From the NCBI GenBank assembly GCA_963823505.1, contig CAWGLY010000008.1:440574-504573 (forward strand): a stretch of DNA of 64,000 nt. Reading direction: 5' to 3'. The stretch comes from an uncultured Acidimicrobiia bacterium. GTDB lineage: Bacteria; Actinomycetota; Acidimicrobiia; Spongiisociales; UBA5794. Numbering within the stretch: the stretch's first letter is position 1; every line of letters starts with the position of its first letter. Of this stretch, positions 8,517 to 14,572 are shown one piece after another. The notes below the pieces were generated by a model. That model worked only from the letters and a program-made list of their open reading frames with translations. It was not told the origin of the DNA and searched no databases. A program made the translations under genes and the position numbers.

Positions 8517-10475
8517 ATGACACTCAAGCCCATTGACCTCGCCAACTTCGACACGTCCGTTGCATCCGTCTGACGACTTCTACCGCTACACCAACGGCGG
8601 ATGGATGGACGCCAACCCCGTGCCCCCCGAGTACTCCCGGTGGGGCTCCTTCAACGAGGTGACCGAGCGCAACGAGCAGCTCCTCAAAAGCCTCATGGAG
8701 GCAGCAGCAGACGCCAAGCACGCACCCGGGACACCGGAGCAGATGGTTGGCGACTTCTACGCCAGCGGTATGGACGAGGAGCAGATCGCGACGCTGGTAT
8801 CACGCCGCTGCAACCGTGGCTGGAGCGCATCGAGACTGCCGAATCCATCGCTGACCTTCGCGAGCTGGCCGCGATGTTCCATCCGAGCGGGATACGCTTC
8901 GTGTTCGGGATCGGTGTCTCGCCCGACTTCGACGACCCGGACAGCTATCTGCTGTACGTGGGCCAGGGTGGGCTCGGGCTCCCCGAGCGTGATTACTACC
9001 TCAGGGATGACGAGCGGTCGGTCACACTGCGCACGCAGTACGAGACCCATGTGGCCGCTCAGCTCCGCAATCTGGGGCAGAGCGACGCGTCGGCAGCAGC
9101 CGATGCGGCGGCGATCCTTGCGTTCGAGACCGCCCTCGCTGAGCCTTCGTACACCGCCGAACAGCAGCGAGACATCGACCTCATCGTCAACCGCCACGAG
9201 GTGACGCAGCTCCCGGACGTGATGCCAGGCTTCGACCTCACCGCGTACCTCGACACCGTCGGCGCCGGCTCGGTGACGGAACTGAACATCGACAACCCAG
9301 GATTCTTCAAGGCTGCAGCCGAGCTCCTCGAGCAGACGCCGATCGAGACGCTCCGCGCCTATGCACGGTGGCACCTCGTGCGATCGGTGGCATCGTCGCT
9401 GACGCCCGTCTTCGCCGACGAGTCGTTCGATTTCTACGGTCGCAAGCTGGGTGGTCAGCAGGAGCAGAAGCCCCGGTGGAAGCGGGTGCTGGCGATGGCG
9501 ACCGGCGATATCGGCGAACAGGTCGCTCAGCTCTACGTCGCCGAGGCGTTCCCTCCTGAAGCGAAGGCGCGGGCCGAGGAGCTCGTCGACAATCTCCTGG
9601 AGGCGATGACGGAGTCGCTGCACCAGCGGGACTGGATGGGCGAGGAGACCCGTCGGGAGGCACTCGCCAAGGTCGCCGGGTTCACCTACAAGATCGGATA
9701 TCCCGACGAGTGGCGCGACTACACAGGGCTCATCATCGATCGGGGCCCTCTGGTCGAGAACCGGTTGCGTGCCGCCGCCTTCGAATTCGAGCGGGATCTC
9801 GGCCGGCTGGGCAAACCGGTAGACCCTCACGAGTGGGAGATGCCGCCCCATGTCGTCAACGCGTACTACCACCCGTTGCGCAACGAGATCGTCTTCCCCG
9901 CCGGGATCCTCCAGCCTCCGTTCTTCTACGCCGATGCCGACGATGCCGTCAATTACGGCGGCATCGGCACCGTCATCGGCCACGAGATAACTCATGGTTT
10001 CGACGATATGGGCAGTCGGTTTGACGCCACCGGCCAGCTCAGGGACTGGTGGAGCGAGGCGGATCGTGCCGAGTTCATGCGCCGTGCCGAAGTGGTGGTC
10101 GAGCAGTACAACGCCTATCAGGTGTTCGCCGACCTCAACGTCAACGGCAAGCTGACGCTGGGTGAGAACATTGCCGACCTCGGTGGCGTGACCCTGGCGT
10201 ATGCCGCTTTGCTGCGCGCCCTTCCAGGACCTGACGTCGAGGAGATCGACGGCTTCACCCCCGCCCAGCGGTTCTTCCTGTCGTGGGGCACCATCTGGCG
10301 GCAAACCACCACAGACGAATGGCTCCGTCTCATCGTCCAGACGGATCCTCATTCACCGGGACACTTCCGTTGCAACGGGCCGCTGTCGAACTTCCCGCCC
10401 TTCGCCGCGGCCTTCGGCATCCCAGGAGATGCCCCCATGATGCGCGGTGCAGAAGCCCGAATAGAGATCTGGTAA
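8517..10475 (+). CDS. M13-family metalloendopeptidase (PepO/neprilysin-like), with two compensating frameshifts near the 5' end
   Basis: 'IDLANFDTSV', 'DDFYRYTNGGW', 'VNAYY', 'GHEITHGFDD' (HExxH), 'GENIADLGG'; reading moves between frames at ~8565 and ~8790. Confidence 0.9.
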
Positions 10476-10502: not shown

Positions 10503-10568
10503 CCCTCTTCTTTCCCTGATTGGGAAGGGAGGATGACACCGGGTCCAGCCGCCAGGCCGGGGGGCGGG
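10503..10568. repeat. Palindrome plus 28-bp direct repeat, left flank of DUF559 gene
   Basis: ttccc-tgatt-gggaa hairpin, then gggtccagccgccaggccggggggcggg (10541-10568). Confidence 0.75.
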
Positions 10569-10600
10569 TCTCAGGTTCCGCCGTCGGGTGGTTGGGCTTG

Positions 10601-11001
10601 TCACCCCGCCGCATCGCGATCGCGGGGAATTCGTGTACGGCCGCTGGAACTTGCATACGAAGGTCGCGCCTCCAGCTCTTCGAGGATCAGACCGAGTATG
10701 TCTTCCAGCCGCTCGTACACGTCTTCGTTGCCGATCCGTACGACTTTGATCCCTGCGGAGTTGAGCAGTCGGTCGCGCCTGGCGTCTCTGCCTGGAGAGT
10801 GGGTCGGTCCGTCGATCTCGAGCGCCAGTCGTTTTTCGGCGCAGTAGAAGTCGAGGATGAACCGCCCCACGGGATGCTGGCGCCGGAACTTGTATCCGAA
10901 GAGGCGTCGTGCGCGCAAGGAACTCCACATCAGACCTCCGCATCTACGAGGTTGCGGCGGAAGTGCTGGGATCGAAGGAGGAGCCAATCGTGTTCGACCA
11001 T
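10601..11001 (-). CDS. DUF559 / Vsr-like endonuclease-domain protein (frameshift at ~10935)
   Basis: 'LMWSSLRARRLFGYKFRRQHPVGRFILDFYCAEKRLALEIDGPTH...DARRDRLLNSAGIKVVRIGNEDV'; the N-terminal 'RSQHFRRNLVDAE' is in another frame from ATG 11001. Confidence 0.85.
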
Positions 11002-11084
11002 AGGTTCCACGATGGCGCCTGGGTGTGACAGGTCTGCGGTGAGCTGAGGCCGAGACCCTCCCCGCCTCCGCCAAGCTCCGGCGT

Positions 11085-11190
11085 CCCTCCCGTGCTTCCC
11101 CTCCCTCGTAGGGAGGGGTCCGGCATCCCTACCCTCCCGTGCTTCCCCTCCCTCGTAGGGAGGGGTCCGGCCGCCAGGCCGGGGGGAGGG
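11085..11190. repeat. Two 40-bp direct repeats with 8-bp palindromes plus 28-bp direct repeat, right flank of DUF559 gene
   Basis: ccctcccgtgcttcccctccctcgtagggaggggtccggc at 11085 and 11132; gggtccggccgccaggccggggggaggg at 11163-11190. Confidence 0.85.
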
Positions 11191-11256
11191 TTTCGAGCCT
11201 GTGAACCACTCGACGGTGGTGGGTCGCTCTACGCGCTCGAGCAGCCGGAAGGTGCG

Positions 11257-12589
11257 CTACGACCCGGCTTCGGTCATGTAGGCGGCGATTGTGGGGAGGC
11301 CGGTGAGTTTGTCGTAGAAGAAGTCGTTGACGATGCGCGTCAGGTCGGCCCTGGCGGCTTCGGCGGCGACCGTTTGCGTGTCGGCATTTTCGCCCTCGGC
11401 GCCGTCTGTGATGGTGGCGCGGAGCCCGAGGAGATTGCGCACGATCTCGAGCTCGGCCTCCCCGTCGAGGGTCGCCACCACGGACAGGATGAGACCGTCC
11501 AGCTGAGCCAGCAGAGTCTCCTTCGTGATGGCGGTGCCGGGCTGCGAGGCCTCGTCGAGGGTTCGCACGACTGCCCCCACTTGATACAGCACGGCGGTCG
11601 GCTCGTCGAACAGCTCGCGGAGGTAGGCCGCTTCCTCGTAACTGCCGTTGAGCCGGAAGATGTTGTACATCCGCTTGGCGGCCTTGCCGTAGTTCTTGGG
11701 GTCCTTGGCGACGTACTTGTGGACTTCTTTTTCGAGCGCAGCGACGTATCCGTCGAGGGCGTCGCTCGACAGGTTGCTGACGAGCTTGGTGAACAGCGGT
11801 ACCGCATCCGCTTCGAGGTAGACCTCCTGGAAGTAGGGGTCGAGGTAGCCGTCGAGGGGCACGATGGATCCGTCCGGCGCTTCCCACGTGACATCGAGCA
11901 TGTTGCTGGCGTTGGCGACCTGGCCGCGCACGGGGTCGGCAACAACCCAGTCGAGCTTGCACCAACCCGGGTCGTCACAGGCCGCCTCCCACGAGATTTC
12001 GACGGTGTCGCCGTCGGGGGAGACCGCAAAGAAGCGCTGATTCTCGATGTCGCCAGGTGTCCAAGCGATAGGCGTGCCCTTGCGACAAAGGCGTTCGTTG
12101 CGCGTCACATCGGCGGGGTAGTTGCCGAACTTCACTTCGATGAGCCTGTAGGTGTCGCCCTCCATCTTTGCGAGCGCCTTGTTCCTGACCACTTGACCGA
12201 GCCGGCGGCAGGCCGCCTCCCTGGTGTCGGCTTTGATGTTGACCCGCTCGAAGTAGTCACAGTCGCCTGGGTACGTCTGCACCTTCGATTGCGCTGCAGA
12301 GCCGGATAGCGCCAATGCGGTTTCGACGTCTTCGGTGTTGTCCAGCCCGACCAACTCACCGACCTTGCGGAAGTAGCCGAGGTCTTCGGCGCTGAAGTCG
12401 AGCATCGTGACACGATGGCCGAACACGCCGGAATCGATGTCGACCACGACATCCGCGCTCTCCTTGGCGAGCGCCACTGCAGTGAGCCATTGCAGCGCTT
12501 CCACTTCGTTCAGCTCGACTCCGAGCCGCTGTGCCGACGAAGACGATGCGGTCCAGATCGGACTGTGCCCCTGCGCTGTCGTTCATCAC
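11257..12589 (-). CDS. Uncharacterised protein with Pol-beta-superfamily nucleotidyltransferase motif (frameshift at ~12530)
   Basis: 'LSGSAAQSKVQTYPGDCDYFE' fits hG[GS]x9-13Dh[DE]h; 'WCKLDWVV' could supply a third carboxylate; 5' part 'MNDSAGAQSDLDRIVF' follows an AAGGGGTGG RBS. Confidence 0.65.
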
Positions 12590-12611
12590 ACCACCCCTTG
12601 TGGAGGCGAAC

Positions 12612-13169
12612 CTACTCGGTCACGGTGTGGTTGCGCTCGTCGAGCTCGGTGAGGATTGCACGAAAGACCTCCGCCTGGAGGACGGCATCGTGGAGCGCAT
12701 GGTGCGGGAGGTCCGCCTCGAGGCCGTATCGCGCCGCCATGTCACGCATCGAGGTCCGTGCCCATGACGACCCTGCGACGCCCATGAAGAGCGCCTTCAT
12801 GTCGAGGGCGCTGTGTCCGAAAGGGTTGCTGCCGACGAATCGATACAGGTAGTCGGTGACGAACATCCAATCGAACGGGGCGTTGAGGGCAACGAAGGTC
12901 GGTCGTTCCCCAGCCCCACACTCCTCGGCCCACCCGGCAAAGCGTGCCATCGCATCTGCCGGCGGCTGGCCCTCGCGGGCGAGCCTGGTGAGCGAGAGGC
13001 CGCTGACGGCGAGTGCCTCTCCGTCGACGCGGTCGGTGAGGGGTTTCAACTCGACGTAGAACGTGCGTTCCGGGTTCTCGACCAGACACGCACCGATGGC
13101 GAGAAGCGAGTAGTCATGGGGTGAAGGCCCCGCCGTTTCGACATCCACCGATATGTACCGCTGCTGCAC
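12612..13169 (-). CDS. DEDDh 3'-5' exonuclease / exoribonuclease
   Basis: Exo I 'SVDVET', Exo II 'NAPFDW', Exo III 'HHALHDA'; TAGGTT -10-like hexamer 6 nt before GTG. Confidence 0.9.
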   Translation of the reverse strand: MQQRYISVDVETAGPSPHDYSLLAIGACLVENPERTFYVELKPLTDRVDGEALAVSGLSLTRLAREGQPPADAMARFAGWAEECGAGERPTFVALNAPFDWMFVTDYLYRFVGSNPFGHSALDMKALFMGVAGSSWARTSMRDMAARYGLEADLPHHALHDAVLQAEVFRAILTELDERNHTVTE

Positions 13170-13293: not shown

Positions 13294-14572
13294 ATGACCG
13301 ACGATCGAACACCTGACGACCCAGCGGATATGCCGGATGGGGCCGATGCCGGTGCGCGATGCCGGTGCTGGCGATGCCGGTGCTGGCGATGCCGGTGCTG
13401 GCGATGCCGGTGCGGGCGACGCAGCTCCACCTCCGCCTCCGCCTCCGCCTCCGCCCCCACCTCCGCCTCCGGGAGCGGCCGCAGCAGGTGCGGGTGCCGC
13501 TCCTGCCGCCAAGGGTACGAGCGGCTGGCTCATCGCCGGTTGGGTCGCCGCCGGTCTTGCCGCCATCGCCCTCGTCGTGGTGTTGATCAACAACAACGGC
13601 GACGACGAGACGGTGGCCGTGGACACCACCACGTCATCCTCAGTTGCCGAGACGACGACAACGGCTGGAGAGACGACGACGACCGCGGCCGGAGAGACCA
13701 CGACCACGGGCGCCGAGACCACCACCACGGTGGCTGAGACCACGACCACGGTGGCTGAGACCACGACCACAGCCGCTGGGGGTATTGGCGGCGAATGTGC
13801 GATCGAGAACCTCAACCTCCTCCAGGCAGGGGTGTTGACGGTGGCAACCGGTGATCCGGCCTTCCCGCCGTGGGTTGGTGACGATGACAACTTCGATGAT
13901 CCCGAGTCCAAGACCGGGTTCGAGGCGGCGCTCGTGTATGAGCTCGCCGCCACTCTCGGTTTCGAAGACGGCGACGTCACCTGGGTCCGTACCGGGTTCG
14001 ACGAGGCCATTGCGCCGGGTCCGAAGAACTTCGACTTCAACCTGCAGCAGTACTCGATCGATGAGACCCGCGACCAGGTGGTCGACTTCTCGGACCCGTA
14101 TTACGTCACGAGGCAGTCGCTGATCGCCCTCGCCGGGTCTCCGGTCATCGGCGCCACCACGCTGGCTGATCTCGTCGACGCCAACCTGGGCGCCCAGATC
14201 GGCACGACGAGCCTCAACTACATCGAGGATGTGATCCAGCCCAACAACCAGGCGTCCGTGTACGACACCAACGTCGATGCGATTTCGGCATTGATCGCGG
14301 GACAGATCGACGGCATCGTGGTTGATCTACCCACCGCGTACTTCATGACGGCGGTACAGATTCCCGAGCAAGGTGCCGAGGGGATCATCGTTGCGCAGTT
14401 TGCGACGCCGGCCCAGGAACCCGACGAGTTCGGGCTGCTGTTTGCGGACGGCAATCCGCTGGTCGACTGCATCAACCAGGCCCTGACCATCCTCCGGGAC
14501 GACGGGGTGCTGGATGCGCTCGAGGCGCAGTGGCTCGCCCAAGGCGGCAACATCCCCACCATCACCGAGTAA
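13294..14572 (+). CDS. Polar amino-acid ABC transporter substrate-binding protein with long low-complexity N-terminus (frameshift in repeat at ~13357)
   Basis: GAGGAGGA RBS + ATG 13294; TM helix, ETTTT linker, 'LTVATGDPAFPPW', 'GFEAAL', 'FDFNLQQYSI', 'VDFSDPYY', 'GAQIGTT'. Confidence 0.88.
13345..13471 (+). repeat. 15-bp tandem repeat (DAGAG x5) followed by CCTCCG poly-proline repeat
   Basis: gatgccggtgc(t/g)ggc at 13345 (13-nt copy), 13358, 13373, 13388, 13403; cctccg run 13427-13471. Confidence 0.85.

Follow-up and report, generated by a model that had tools for sequence, protein, structure and literature searches.

A Pol-beta-type nucleotidyltransferase gene paired with a Cap18/Exo-family exonuclease gene in Chloroflexota and Acidimicrobiia: a possible 2'-5' nucleotide pathway

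A contig from an uncultured Acidimicrobiia bacterium (CAWGLY010000008.1; the 64,000 nucleotides from 440,574 to 504,573, hereafter referred to as the window) contains a gene for a nucleotidyltransferase of no named family, which directly follows a gene for a DEDDh exonuclease. An earlier note on this DNA, made from the sequence alone, suggested that the two proteins might write and erase either RNA 3' ends or a nucleotide messenger. The locus raises the question of what such a pair would do, and whether it is peculiar to this genome. It is proposed here, with somewhat less than even confidence, that the transferase synthesises a short nucleotide product containing 2'-5' links, the level of which is kept in check by the exonuclease. 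The evidence comes from the family to which the exonuclease belongs, from the frequency with which the two genes are found together and from the conserved residues and modelled structure of the transferase.

The elements of the locus are listed below. Positions are numbered over the whole window and residues of the transferase follow the 415-amino-acid open reading frame (ORF).

12612..13169, minus strand: DEDDh exonuclease of the Cap18/Exo family, 185 amino acids, GTG start (ORF call and Pfam RNase_T)
12590..12611, minus strand: spacer of 22 nucleotides separating the stop codon of the exonuclease from the start of the transferase, GTTCGCCTCCACAAGGGGTGGT, with the purine-rich, ribosome-binding-like AAGGGGTGG
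12538..12589, minus strand: 5' segment of the transferase gene, from GTG 12589 or ATG 12586, reading MNDSAGAQSDLDRIV (three-frame translation, alignments, tblastn)
11257..12537, minus strand: rest of the transferase gene, in which an ORF of 415 amino acids was called at 11257-12504, with an internal GTG start
12247..12309, minus strand: predicted Pol-beta-type active-site motif LSGSAAQSKVQTYPGDCDYFE, residues 66-86, with G68-S69 after strand 1 and D81-x-D83 starting strand 2
11941-11964, minus strand: WCKLDWVV string of the transferase, located in the ORF
11893..11895, minus strand: D204, candidate third metal-binding carboxylate on strand 195-208 (from its invariance; placement from modelled secondary structure)
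11851-11853, minus strand: D218, invariant residue of the transferase (conservation alignment)
11650..11694, minus strand: helix NYGKAAKRMYNIFRL of the helical domain, with K274, R278, Y280, N281 and R284 (modelled helix 272-286 and conservation)

Both genes are on the minus strand, with that of the exonuclease first. Read directly, its TAG stop codon is followed by 22 nucleotides and then by GTG at 12589 and ATG at 12586. The transferase gene spans 11257-12589 and, with a frameshift near its 5' end repaired, encodes a protein of about 443 amino acids. The earlier note had described an intact DEDDh exonuclease, a 22-bp gap, a ribosome-binding site and a gene for about 440 amino acids, and all are present, with AAGGGGTGG as the ribosome-binding-like sequence; the hG[GS]x9-13Dh[DE]h motif, the WCKLDWVV string and the helical string that it had picked out were likewise found, at 12247-12309, 11941-11964 and 11650-11694, respectively.

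The exonuclease was compared with Pfam, PADLOC and the PDB. Pfam matches were obtained to RNase_T (E value 2.4e-9) and Rv2179c-like (3.1e-7). Much stronger was the full-length match to the PADLOC model 'Effector Exonuclease' (1.5e-64), which represents the antiphage signalling systems based on cyclic oligonucleotides (CBASS); the model for Cas-associated DEDDh proteins followed at 4e-17. The best PDB match was 7T2S, the Cap18 protein of E. coli upec-117 (1.3e-40, 43% identity), with the next PDB family at 1e-4. When plasmids were searched by tblastn with the exonuclease, 97 records were found at 47-53% identity. Three of these were examined: one is situated in a type II CBASS operon (SAVED, nucleotidyltransferase, ThiF-like, JAB, exonuclease), and the other two are in type III-like operons (phosphorylase, 'CBASS oligonucleotide cyclase', hypothetical protein, ATP-binding protein, exonuclease).

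The residues of the exonuclease lead to the same assignment. The catalytic D9, E11, D100, H156 and D161 are invariant in 64 transferase-linked and four CBASS exonucleases, and P15, V/I55, N96 and F117 are common to these same proteins, the residue at position 55 being valine in the window. The latter four correspond to the pocket of the Vibrio exonuclease VcExo (P15, V55, N97, F120), as mapped by residue number and motif without the VcExo sequence, and are conserved in all of the aligned groups. D49 and E51, which contact guanine in VcExo, are present in the window exonuclease and vary across the family. It is apparent, from its sequence, that the exonuclease is a member of the Cap18/Exo family and no generic DEDDh enzyme. 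In a rough neighbour-joining tree, midpoint-rooted and without an outgroup, the four CBASS exonucleases formed one subclade among the transferase-linked ones. This result is suggestive only, and would nest the CBASS exonucleases within transferase-linked diversity.

The properties of the Cap18/Exo family bear directly on the question posed above. Cap18 was named in an earlier paper, in which a catalytic mutant left phage protection unchanged. According to a more recent preprint, of 2026 (10.1101/2025.03.04.641389), Exo proteins neither cut nor bind ordinary DNA or RNA. Their substrates are 2'-5' oligoadenylate and the 2'-5'-linked dinucleotides that arise as intermediates of cGAS, both bacterial and human; by hydrolysing them, the Exo proteins limit cGAS-type synthesis and set a threshold for activation. 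The key residues reported there for the Vibrio enzyme are D9, E11, D101, H157, D162, F120, N97, P15 and V55.

The association of the two genes was examined in 85 transferase loci, which were searched for the exonuclease by tblastn. Five of the 20 negative loci had less than 700 nucleotides of upstream sequence, leaving 80 that were informative. Of these 80, 65 (81%), from two phyla, had the exonuclease gene as the immediate upstream neighbour in the same orientation, and never elsewhere among the 65. Seen from the exonuclease side, a transferase gene was directly downstream in both of the two loci considered. The earlier note had made such linkage a test of its proposal, and the exonuclease is indeed a conserved neighbour. 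The pairing reaches a subfamily with 41% transferase and 46% exonuclease identity, in which the genes overlap by 4 nucleotides; among relatives as a whole the spacing ranged from overlaps of 4-8 nucleotides (L005, L089 and L096) to about 220 nucleotides apart. In three of the 65 loci (L016, L055 and L067) the exonuclease match was partial, at 39-108 amino acids; these copies may be degraded, frameshifted or masked.

The genome loci represent the best-scoring 80 of at least 545 transferase matches in a collection that represents each species by a single genome, and are not a random sample. Nearly all of these 80 are from Anaerolineae or other Chloroflexota, and eight are from Acidimicrobiia or other Actinomycetota. 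The pair is present in cultured organisms, for example Bellilinea caldifistulae (locus L054). Its neighbours are housekeeping genes that depend on the lineage (thrS, HIT and fusA; photolyase; parA-parB; dnaG-rpoD and glyQS), and over 11 kb the window shows synteny with a relative that has a 79%-identical transferase. No transferase relatives were found on plasmids, on phage genomes or, by a pattern scan and tblastn, on IMG/VR viral contigs. The pair is a stable chromosomal module of the Anaerolineae/Chloroflexota and Acidimicrobiia.

The sole recurrent third gene encodes a DUF3786 protein (Pfam, 8e-40) and lies directly downstream, on the same strand, in 19 Anaerolineae loci. Examples identified with Pfam, all on the strand of the transferase, are at 6334-7023 in L067, 6315-6998 in L011 and 5945-6634 in L050. 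This gene could be a matter of lineage synteny or a third partner. A third conserved gene was also sought as an effector, and was rejected when the clustering of neighbouring ORFs gave DUF3786 and lineage-specific synteny such as glyS only. The pair was seen, in addition, in bins labelled as a Methanosarcinales archaeon (L050) and as a gammaproteobacterium of the Steroidobacteraceae (L073). Because L050 has the Anaerolineae-type DUF3786 neighbour, that contig at least is probably mis-binned, as opposed to reflecting wide transfer.

The transferase is a member of a very populous family, which is represented mainly in Anaerolineae/Chloroflexota and Acidimicrobiia. Scoring of 8000 candidates yielded more than 6296 clusters at 90% identity, every one of them unnamed or 'hypothetical', and an exhaustive profile search returned 714 representatives at 50% identity. 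The nearest homologue (P0002, 444 amino acids) is 85% identical to the window protein, and the identity between the Acidimicrobiia and Anaerolineae proteins, at 60-64%, is unusually high. In view of that number of clusters and that identity across two phyla, the family is large and strongly constrained.

Conservation was analysed in an alignment of 47 transferase sequences, with identities down to 29%. S69, D81, D83, G127, W148, D204, W207, D218, Y253, R278, Y280, N281, R284 and A292 are invariant, and G68, K274 and others are nearly so. The window protein conforms to the hG[GS]...[DE]h[DE]h pattern, with L-S-G68-S69, 11 residues and then D81-C-D83-Y, flanked in the model described below by strands 60-67 and 81-91. 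As G68, S69, D81 and D83 are invariant or nearly invariant down to 29% identity, the motif is not a chance occurrence, and the family-wide conservation of G-S and D-x-D bears out the earlier note. D185, in the WCKLDWVV string, was considered as the third catalytic residue and was ruled out, since several distant members have G, S, A, N or E in its place. The helix bearing K274, R278, Y280, N281 and R284 may, by analogy with Pol-beta nucleotidyltransferases of two domains, provide the face that binds the nucleotide triphosphate. Taken together, the G-S and D-x-D residues, the candidate later carboxylate and the basic and aromatic helix are those predicted of an active Pol-beta-type transferase.

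Sequence libraries did not place this protein in any described family. No meaningful match for the window transferase was obtained in Pfam, NCBIfam, PADLOC or PHROGs; stray partial matches to RecX-like (0.016) and phrog_14886 (0.0015) were treated as noise. Pfam and PADLOC found nothing on 27 diverse members of the family. Against PDB sequences, the single protein and a 36-sequence profile gave chance-level matches alone (CBM74, sestrin and FadR). Set against the cyclases from two CBASS operons that carry the exonuclease, its profile gave a probability of 0.2% in hhalign. These results agree with the view in the earlier note that, by sequence, the protein is not a CD-NTase, a CCA/poly(A) polymerase or a toxin nucleotidyltransferase.

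Structural comparison was more informative. A first model, of a full-length homologue at 85% identity, was built on a shallow alignment (predicted local distance difference test score, pLDDT, 73.6, with a poor N-terminus), and was later replaced by a second AlphaFold model, of the 415-amino-acid product of the window, made from a 47-sequence alignment (pLDDT 92.2; predicted template-modelling score 0.89). Searched with Foldseek, both models had the same top PDB matches, namely 4AMQ, 4AMS and 4XUL, three entries for Mg662 of Megavirus chilensis. For the second model the E values of these matches were 1.5e-6 to 6.9e-6, and that of 4XUL, a complex with GTP, was 3e-6, with template-modelling (TM) scores of 0.55/0.61. 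The next solved match was FAM46C/TENT5C (9e-3, TM about 0.2). Matches to the aminoglycoside adenylyltransferase AadA (0.2) and to DwCdnB and CdnD (0.25-0.35, TM at most 0.24) were very weak and chance-like.

A search of predicted viral structures with the first model gave 16 giant-virus or virophage proteins at E values below 1e-5. The best of these was V6BPH6 of Zamilon (8e-15, TM 0.58), and others included a Sputnik V21-like protein and proteins of mavirus and Yellowstone Lake virophage 5, as well as a Pithovirus 'nucleotidyl transferase'. The likeness to Mg662 and the V21-like proteins spans both domains, with TM of at least 0.5. The overall fold, as modelled, is thus of the solved Pol-beta nucleotidyltransferase type, and the model places the protein in the lineage of Mg662 and the virophage V21-like proteins. 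The likeness to giant-virus proteins to which the earlier note had pointed is confirmed, with respect to structure only.

Mg662 is described, in its PDB entries, with the words 'a Megaviridae ORFan gene encodes a new nucleotidyl transferase', and it provides the best structural match over two domains. It and the virophage proteins nevertheless differ from the transferase in several respects. Identity in the structural alignments is 9-15%, and phmmer and a profile hmmsearch against PDB sequences missed 4AMQ, 4AMS and 4XUL even at E values up to 10. The bacterial transferases are about 80 residues longer than Mg662, and the viral proteins come from viruses with eukaryotic hosts. We know of no exonuclease partner for any of them.

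The earlier note had named three outcomes that would count against its proposal, namely a model lacking the Pol-beta fold, D-x-D residues that are not conserved and homologues that are not linked to the exonuclease. All three were checked, and the fold, the conserved residues and the linkage were each found. The choice that it had left between RNA 3'-end tailing and a nucleotide messenger is tipped towards the latter because the exonuclease belongs to the Cap18/Exo family of CBASS.

To the gene identities, fold, catalytic residues, linkage and setting described above, the proposal would add substrates, a 2'-5' chemistry, a signalling role and the logic of a threshold. The two genes would form one operon for the maker and the breaker of a short nucleotide product. 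The transferase would join nucleoside triphosphates (NTPs) to give a short oligonucleotide, either linear or cyclic, in which one or more of the phosphodiester bonds are 2'-5'. A 2'-5' product would be the most likely one because the family of the partner is reported to be specialised for short 2'-5' nucleotides beside messenger synthases. GTP may be among the substrates, since Mg662, the closest solved match, was crystallised with it. The exonuclease would then hydrolyse the 2'-5'-linked product or a released linear intermediate, holding the basal level low and setting a threshold, much as its relatives in CBASS are reported to do. As there is no effector gene beside the pair, the receptor, if any, would be encoded elsewhere.

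A working logic of this kind, in which a synthase is combined with a 2'-5' phosphodiesterase that sets a threshold, would resemble that of the CD-NTases. The transferase shares with CD-NTases, cGAS and OAS a predicted Pol-beta nucleotidyltransferase core and helical domain with G-S and D-x-D, and CD-NTases are also found with a Cap18-type exonuclease. The lack of any cyclase match in Pfam, NCBIfam or PADLOC, together with the hhalign result and the very weak structural matches to DwCdnB and CdnD, sets the transferase apart from them. A functional analogy may be drawn with the 2'-5' oligoadenylate system of eukaryotes, in which OAS, a synthase of Pol-beta fold, is matched by dedicated 2'-5' hydrolases (PDE12 and the viral 2H phosphoesterases). 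Those hydrolases are unrelated in fold to the exonuclease, and no RNase L-like receptor is evident here.

Several observations weigh against this proposal. An adjacent exonuclease was not found in 15 loci with enough upstream sequence, nor in two subfamilies at 30-34% transferase identity, and the clustering of neighbouring ORFs in the 85 loci gave no conserved receptor or effector gene beside the pair. The 2'-5' specificity comes from one preprint and is carried over by homology at about 43-53% identity. The likeness to Mg662 is one of overall fold, and no functional paper emerged from literature searches on Mg662 itself, the Megaviridae ORFan transferase, Sputnik V21 or mimivirus L544. Finally, distant members with signal-peptide-like N-termini, lectin-like domains or biosynthetic-looking clusters fit cytoplasmic NTP-signalling poorly, as far as those branches are concerned.

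The alternative with the strongest case is that the pair acts on RNA 3' ends, with the transferase adding untemplated nucleotides to tRNA or other RNA in tailing, in repair or in the manner of a toxin (cf. TENT5, CCA-adding enzymes and MenT) and the exonuclease trimming them. This is considered unlikely. FAM46C/TENT5C, a non-canonical poly(A) polymerase, is indeed the next-best solved match, and the two-domain nucleotidyltransferase architecture is shared with FAM46/TENT5 and with the MenT/AbiEii toxins, from which the idea of a writer and an eraser was drawn. DEDDh enzymes trim RNA 3' ends as a rule, and tight, often overlapping genes would suit an enzyme and its antidote. The exonuclease, however, is a Cap18/Exo protein, and those members of that family that were tested neither acted on ordinary RNA or DNA nor bound to it (10.1101/2025.03.04.641389). 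The match to FAM46C is weak, at a TM of about 0.2, and no sequence model for AbiEii, MenT or another toxin nucleotidyltransferase was matched. The same applies to MNT-HEPN toxin-antitoxin systems, for which, as for AbiEii/MenT, Pfam, NCBIfam and PADLOC gave no match; the partner here is an exonuclease and no known antitoxin. The 15 loci in which the transferase stands alone would be unexpected for a toxin dependent on an antidote.

The presence of a Cap18-type exonuclease also raises the possibility of anti-phage defence, that is, a minimal CBASS-like abortive infection system in which an unrelated transferase stands in place of the CD-NTase and the effector is encoded elsewhere. The plasmid relatives of the exonuclease outside the module (47-53% identical), which were found in type II and III CBASS operons, and the nested position of the CBASS subclade in the rough tree would agree with such a role. 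The exonuclease has the same DEDDh residues as 7T2S, along with P15, V55, N96 and F117, and like it is encoded in an operon with a nucleotidyltransferase. The differences from CBASS are more extensive. The partner in the window is no CD-NTase, and HORMA/TRIP13, E1/E2/JAB and effector genes are absent. The exonuclease gene is first in the operon, unlike in CBASS. Across the 85 loci the recurrent partners are the exonuclease and, in 19, DUF3786, and no gene for an effector, a sensor or another defence function lies beside the pair. In Chloroflexota and Acidimicrobiia the module is a stable part of the chromosome, whereas Cap18 of CBASS is found on mobile elements of Proteobacteria; its surroundings are housekeeping and syntenic rather than island-like, and the transferase family was not found on plasmids, phages or IMG/VR contigs. 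PADLOC matched the transferase in none of the 27 diverse members, and an identity of 60% across phyla is unlike that of fast-evolving defence genes. A role in defence is accordingly judged improbable.

It is also improbable, and slightly more so, that the transferase nucleotidylylates a small molecule, a sugar or a protein (cf. aminoglycoside and lincosamide nucleotidyltransferases, GlnE and LicD/FKRP), with the exonuclease only loosely related to it in function. The structural match to AadA points in this direction and is very weak (0.2). More is offered by distant members of the family, at about 32-34% identity (P0225, P0166, P0201 and P0227), in which the catalytic motifs are kept. N-termini resembling signal peptides were observed in P0201, P0227 and P0225, and P0225 (L094, 693-4568) has in addition the carbohydrate-binding-type domains AbfB and FBA, and a PLAT domain. 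P0166 (L095, 5001-8204) contains a PQQ-type propeller and is encoded in a cluster with AMP-binding/PP-binding (carrier-protein), PLDc_2, carbamoyltransferase, GT25 glycosyltransferase and P450 genes. These branches possibly have a different, extracytoplasmic or biosynthetic role. As clues to the function of the family, the domain fusions of P0166 and P0225 were set aside, pointing as they do to secreted, lectin-like or biosynthetic settings in branches of about 32-34% identity. The exonuclease-linked transferase clade has no signal peptide, and this alternative leaves unexplained a Cap18-type phosphodiesterase upstream in 81% of the loci, in two phyla.

The frameshift bears on whether the pair functions in this particular genome. 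Homologues are about 440 amino acids long and begin, in the protein alignment, with M..DLxRIVxSARRLGVELDE. In the window this N-terminus is split: the frame that opens at 12589 reads MNDSAGAQSDLDRIV, and that of the long ORF reads SSAQRLGVELNEVEALQWL. The DNA alignment with relatives L006, L001 and L005 shows one surplus base in 12538-12541 (ATCGTC-TTCG-TCGGCA vs ATCGTC-GGT-TCGGCA), outside any long homopolymer, so that the frameshift reported in the earlier note can be placed to within four positions. A gene for an M13 peptidase at 8536-10475 on the plus strand, 2.7 kb from the transferase gene, was also found to be frameshifted: the orthologue in the syntenic relative is matched in frame 1 at 8536-8787 (amino acids 6-90) and in frame 3 at 8769-10472 (amino acids 81-651). 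Because this gene, within 4 kb, has a similar split, the frameshift in the transferase gene is probably a sequencing or assembly indel rather than a sign of gene decay. That the transferase gene is a dead pseudogene, and that the pair does nothing here, is very improbable: the surplus base does cut the first 16-17 codons off the rest, and the source annotation's own gene call is the shortened 415-amino-acid ORF, but the other 415 codons are open, 85% identical to the nearest homologue and complete in their conserved residues, the part preceding the shift still aligns with the N-terminus of the family, the second defect of the same type suggests assembly indels, and the 415-amino-acid product alone folds confidently in silico.

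Other features were observed on either side of the pair. Between the M13 peptidase and transferase genes is a DUF559 gene (10601-11074, minus strand; Pfam, 1.5e-25) that the syntenic relative L001 lacks. Direct repeats of 32 nucleotides (10541-10572 and 11163-11194, 91% identical) flank this gene, and a unit of 40 nucleotides with the palindromic core CCCCTCCCTCGTAGGGAGGGG occurs twice near it (11085-11124 and 11132-11171). The region 10541-11194 has the appearance of a small insertion that carries repeat or REP-like (repetitive extragenic palindromic) elements. On the other side, the gene for a solute-binding protein (SBP_bac_3-like; 13337-14572, plus strand) begins with a low-complexity stretch rich in Ala, Gly, Asp, Pro and Thr (13337-13700), the coding sequence of which consists of short tandem repeats (GATGCCGGTGCTGGC units, followed by a poly-Pro run and by ETTTT repeats). 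Such a linker is typical of a lipoprotein or secreted protein, though it is of unusual length.

The pair appears to be undescribed in the literature searched, coverage of which was incomplete and included the discussion and methods of 10.1101/2025.03.04.641389. Its exonuclease family is already known, and its transferase lineage has been solved structurally, with no functional description found. We infer that the pair comprises a nucleotide synthase and a dedicated phosphodiesterase, in which the synthase and the genomic logic differ from those of CBASS. The proposal that the transferase makes, and the exonuclease controls, a 2'-5' product may be carried further, although this extension is speculative and rather doubtful. 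The pair would then be the core of a previously unknown, vertically inherited 2'-5' nucleotide second-messenger pathway of Chloroflexota and Acidimicrobiia. Its synthase would belong to a lineage shared with giant viruses and virophages, not to that of cGAS and the CD-NTases, and a Cap18-type phosphodiesterase would hold the messenger below its threshold. CBASS Cap18 would in that case be one branch of a larger, mainly non-CBASS family of exonucleases.

Few classes of nucleotide-messenger synthases are known, namely GGDEF, DAC, CD-NTase/cGAS-OAS and the Cas10 palm. If a 2'-5' signal is indeed made, the transferase would constitute a new class, one that belongs to the core chromosome rather than to defence islands and is present in thousands of environmental Chloroflexota and Actinomycetota. 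The Cap18/Exo family, only recently reported to be specific for 2'-5' bonds, would then work mostly outside CBASS. The pair also offers a first functional lead for the orphan proteins of the Mg662 and virophage V21-like type, for which structures have been solved and no published role was found. As the two proteins are small, appear soluble and are present in cultured organisms, the idea can be tested directly. The transferase family is very widespread in bacteria and unstudied, and its conserved association with the exonuclease in a two-gene unit points to what may be an undescribed nucleotide-signal pathway.

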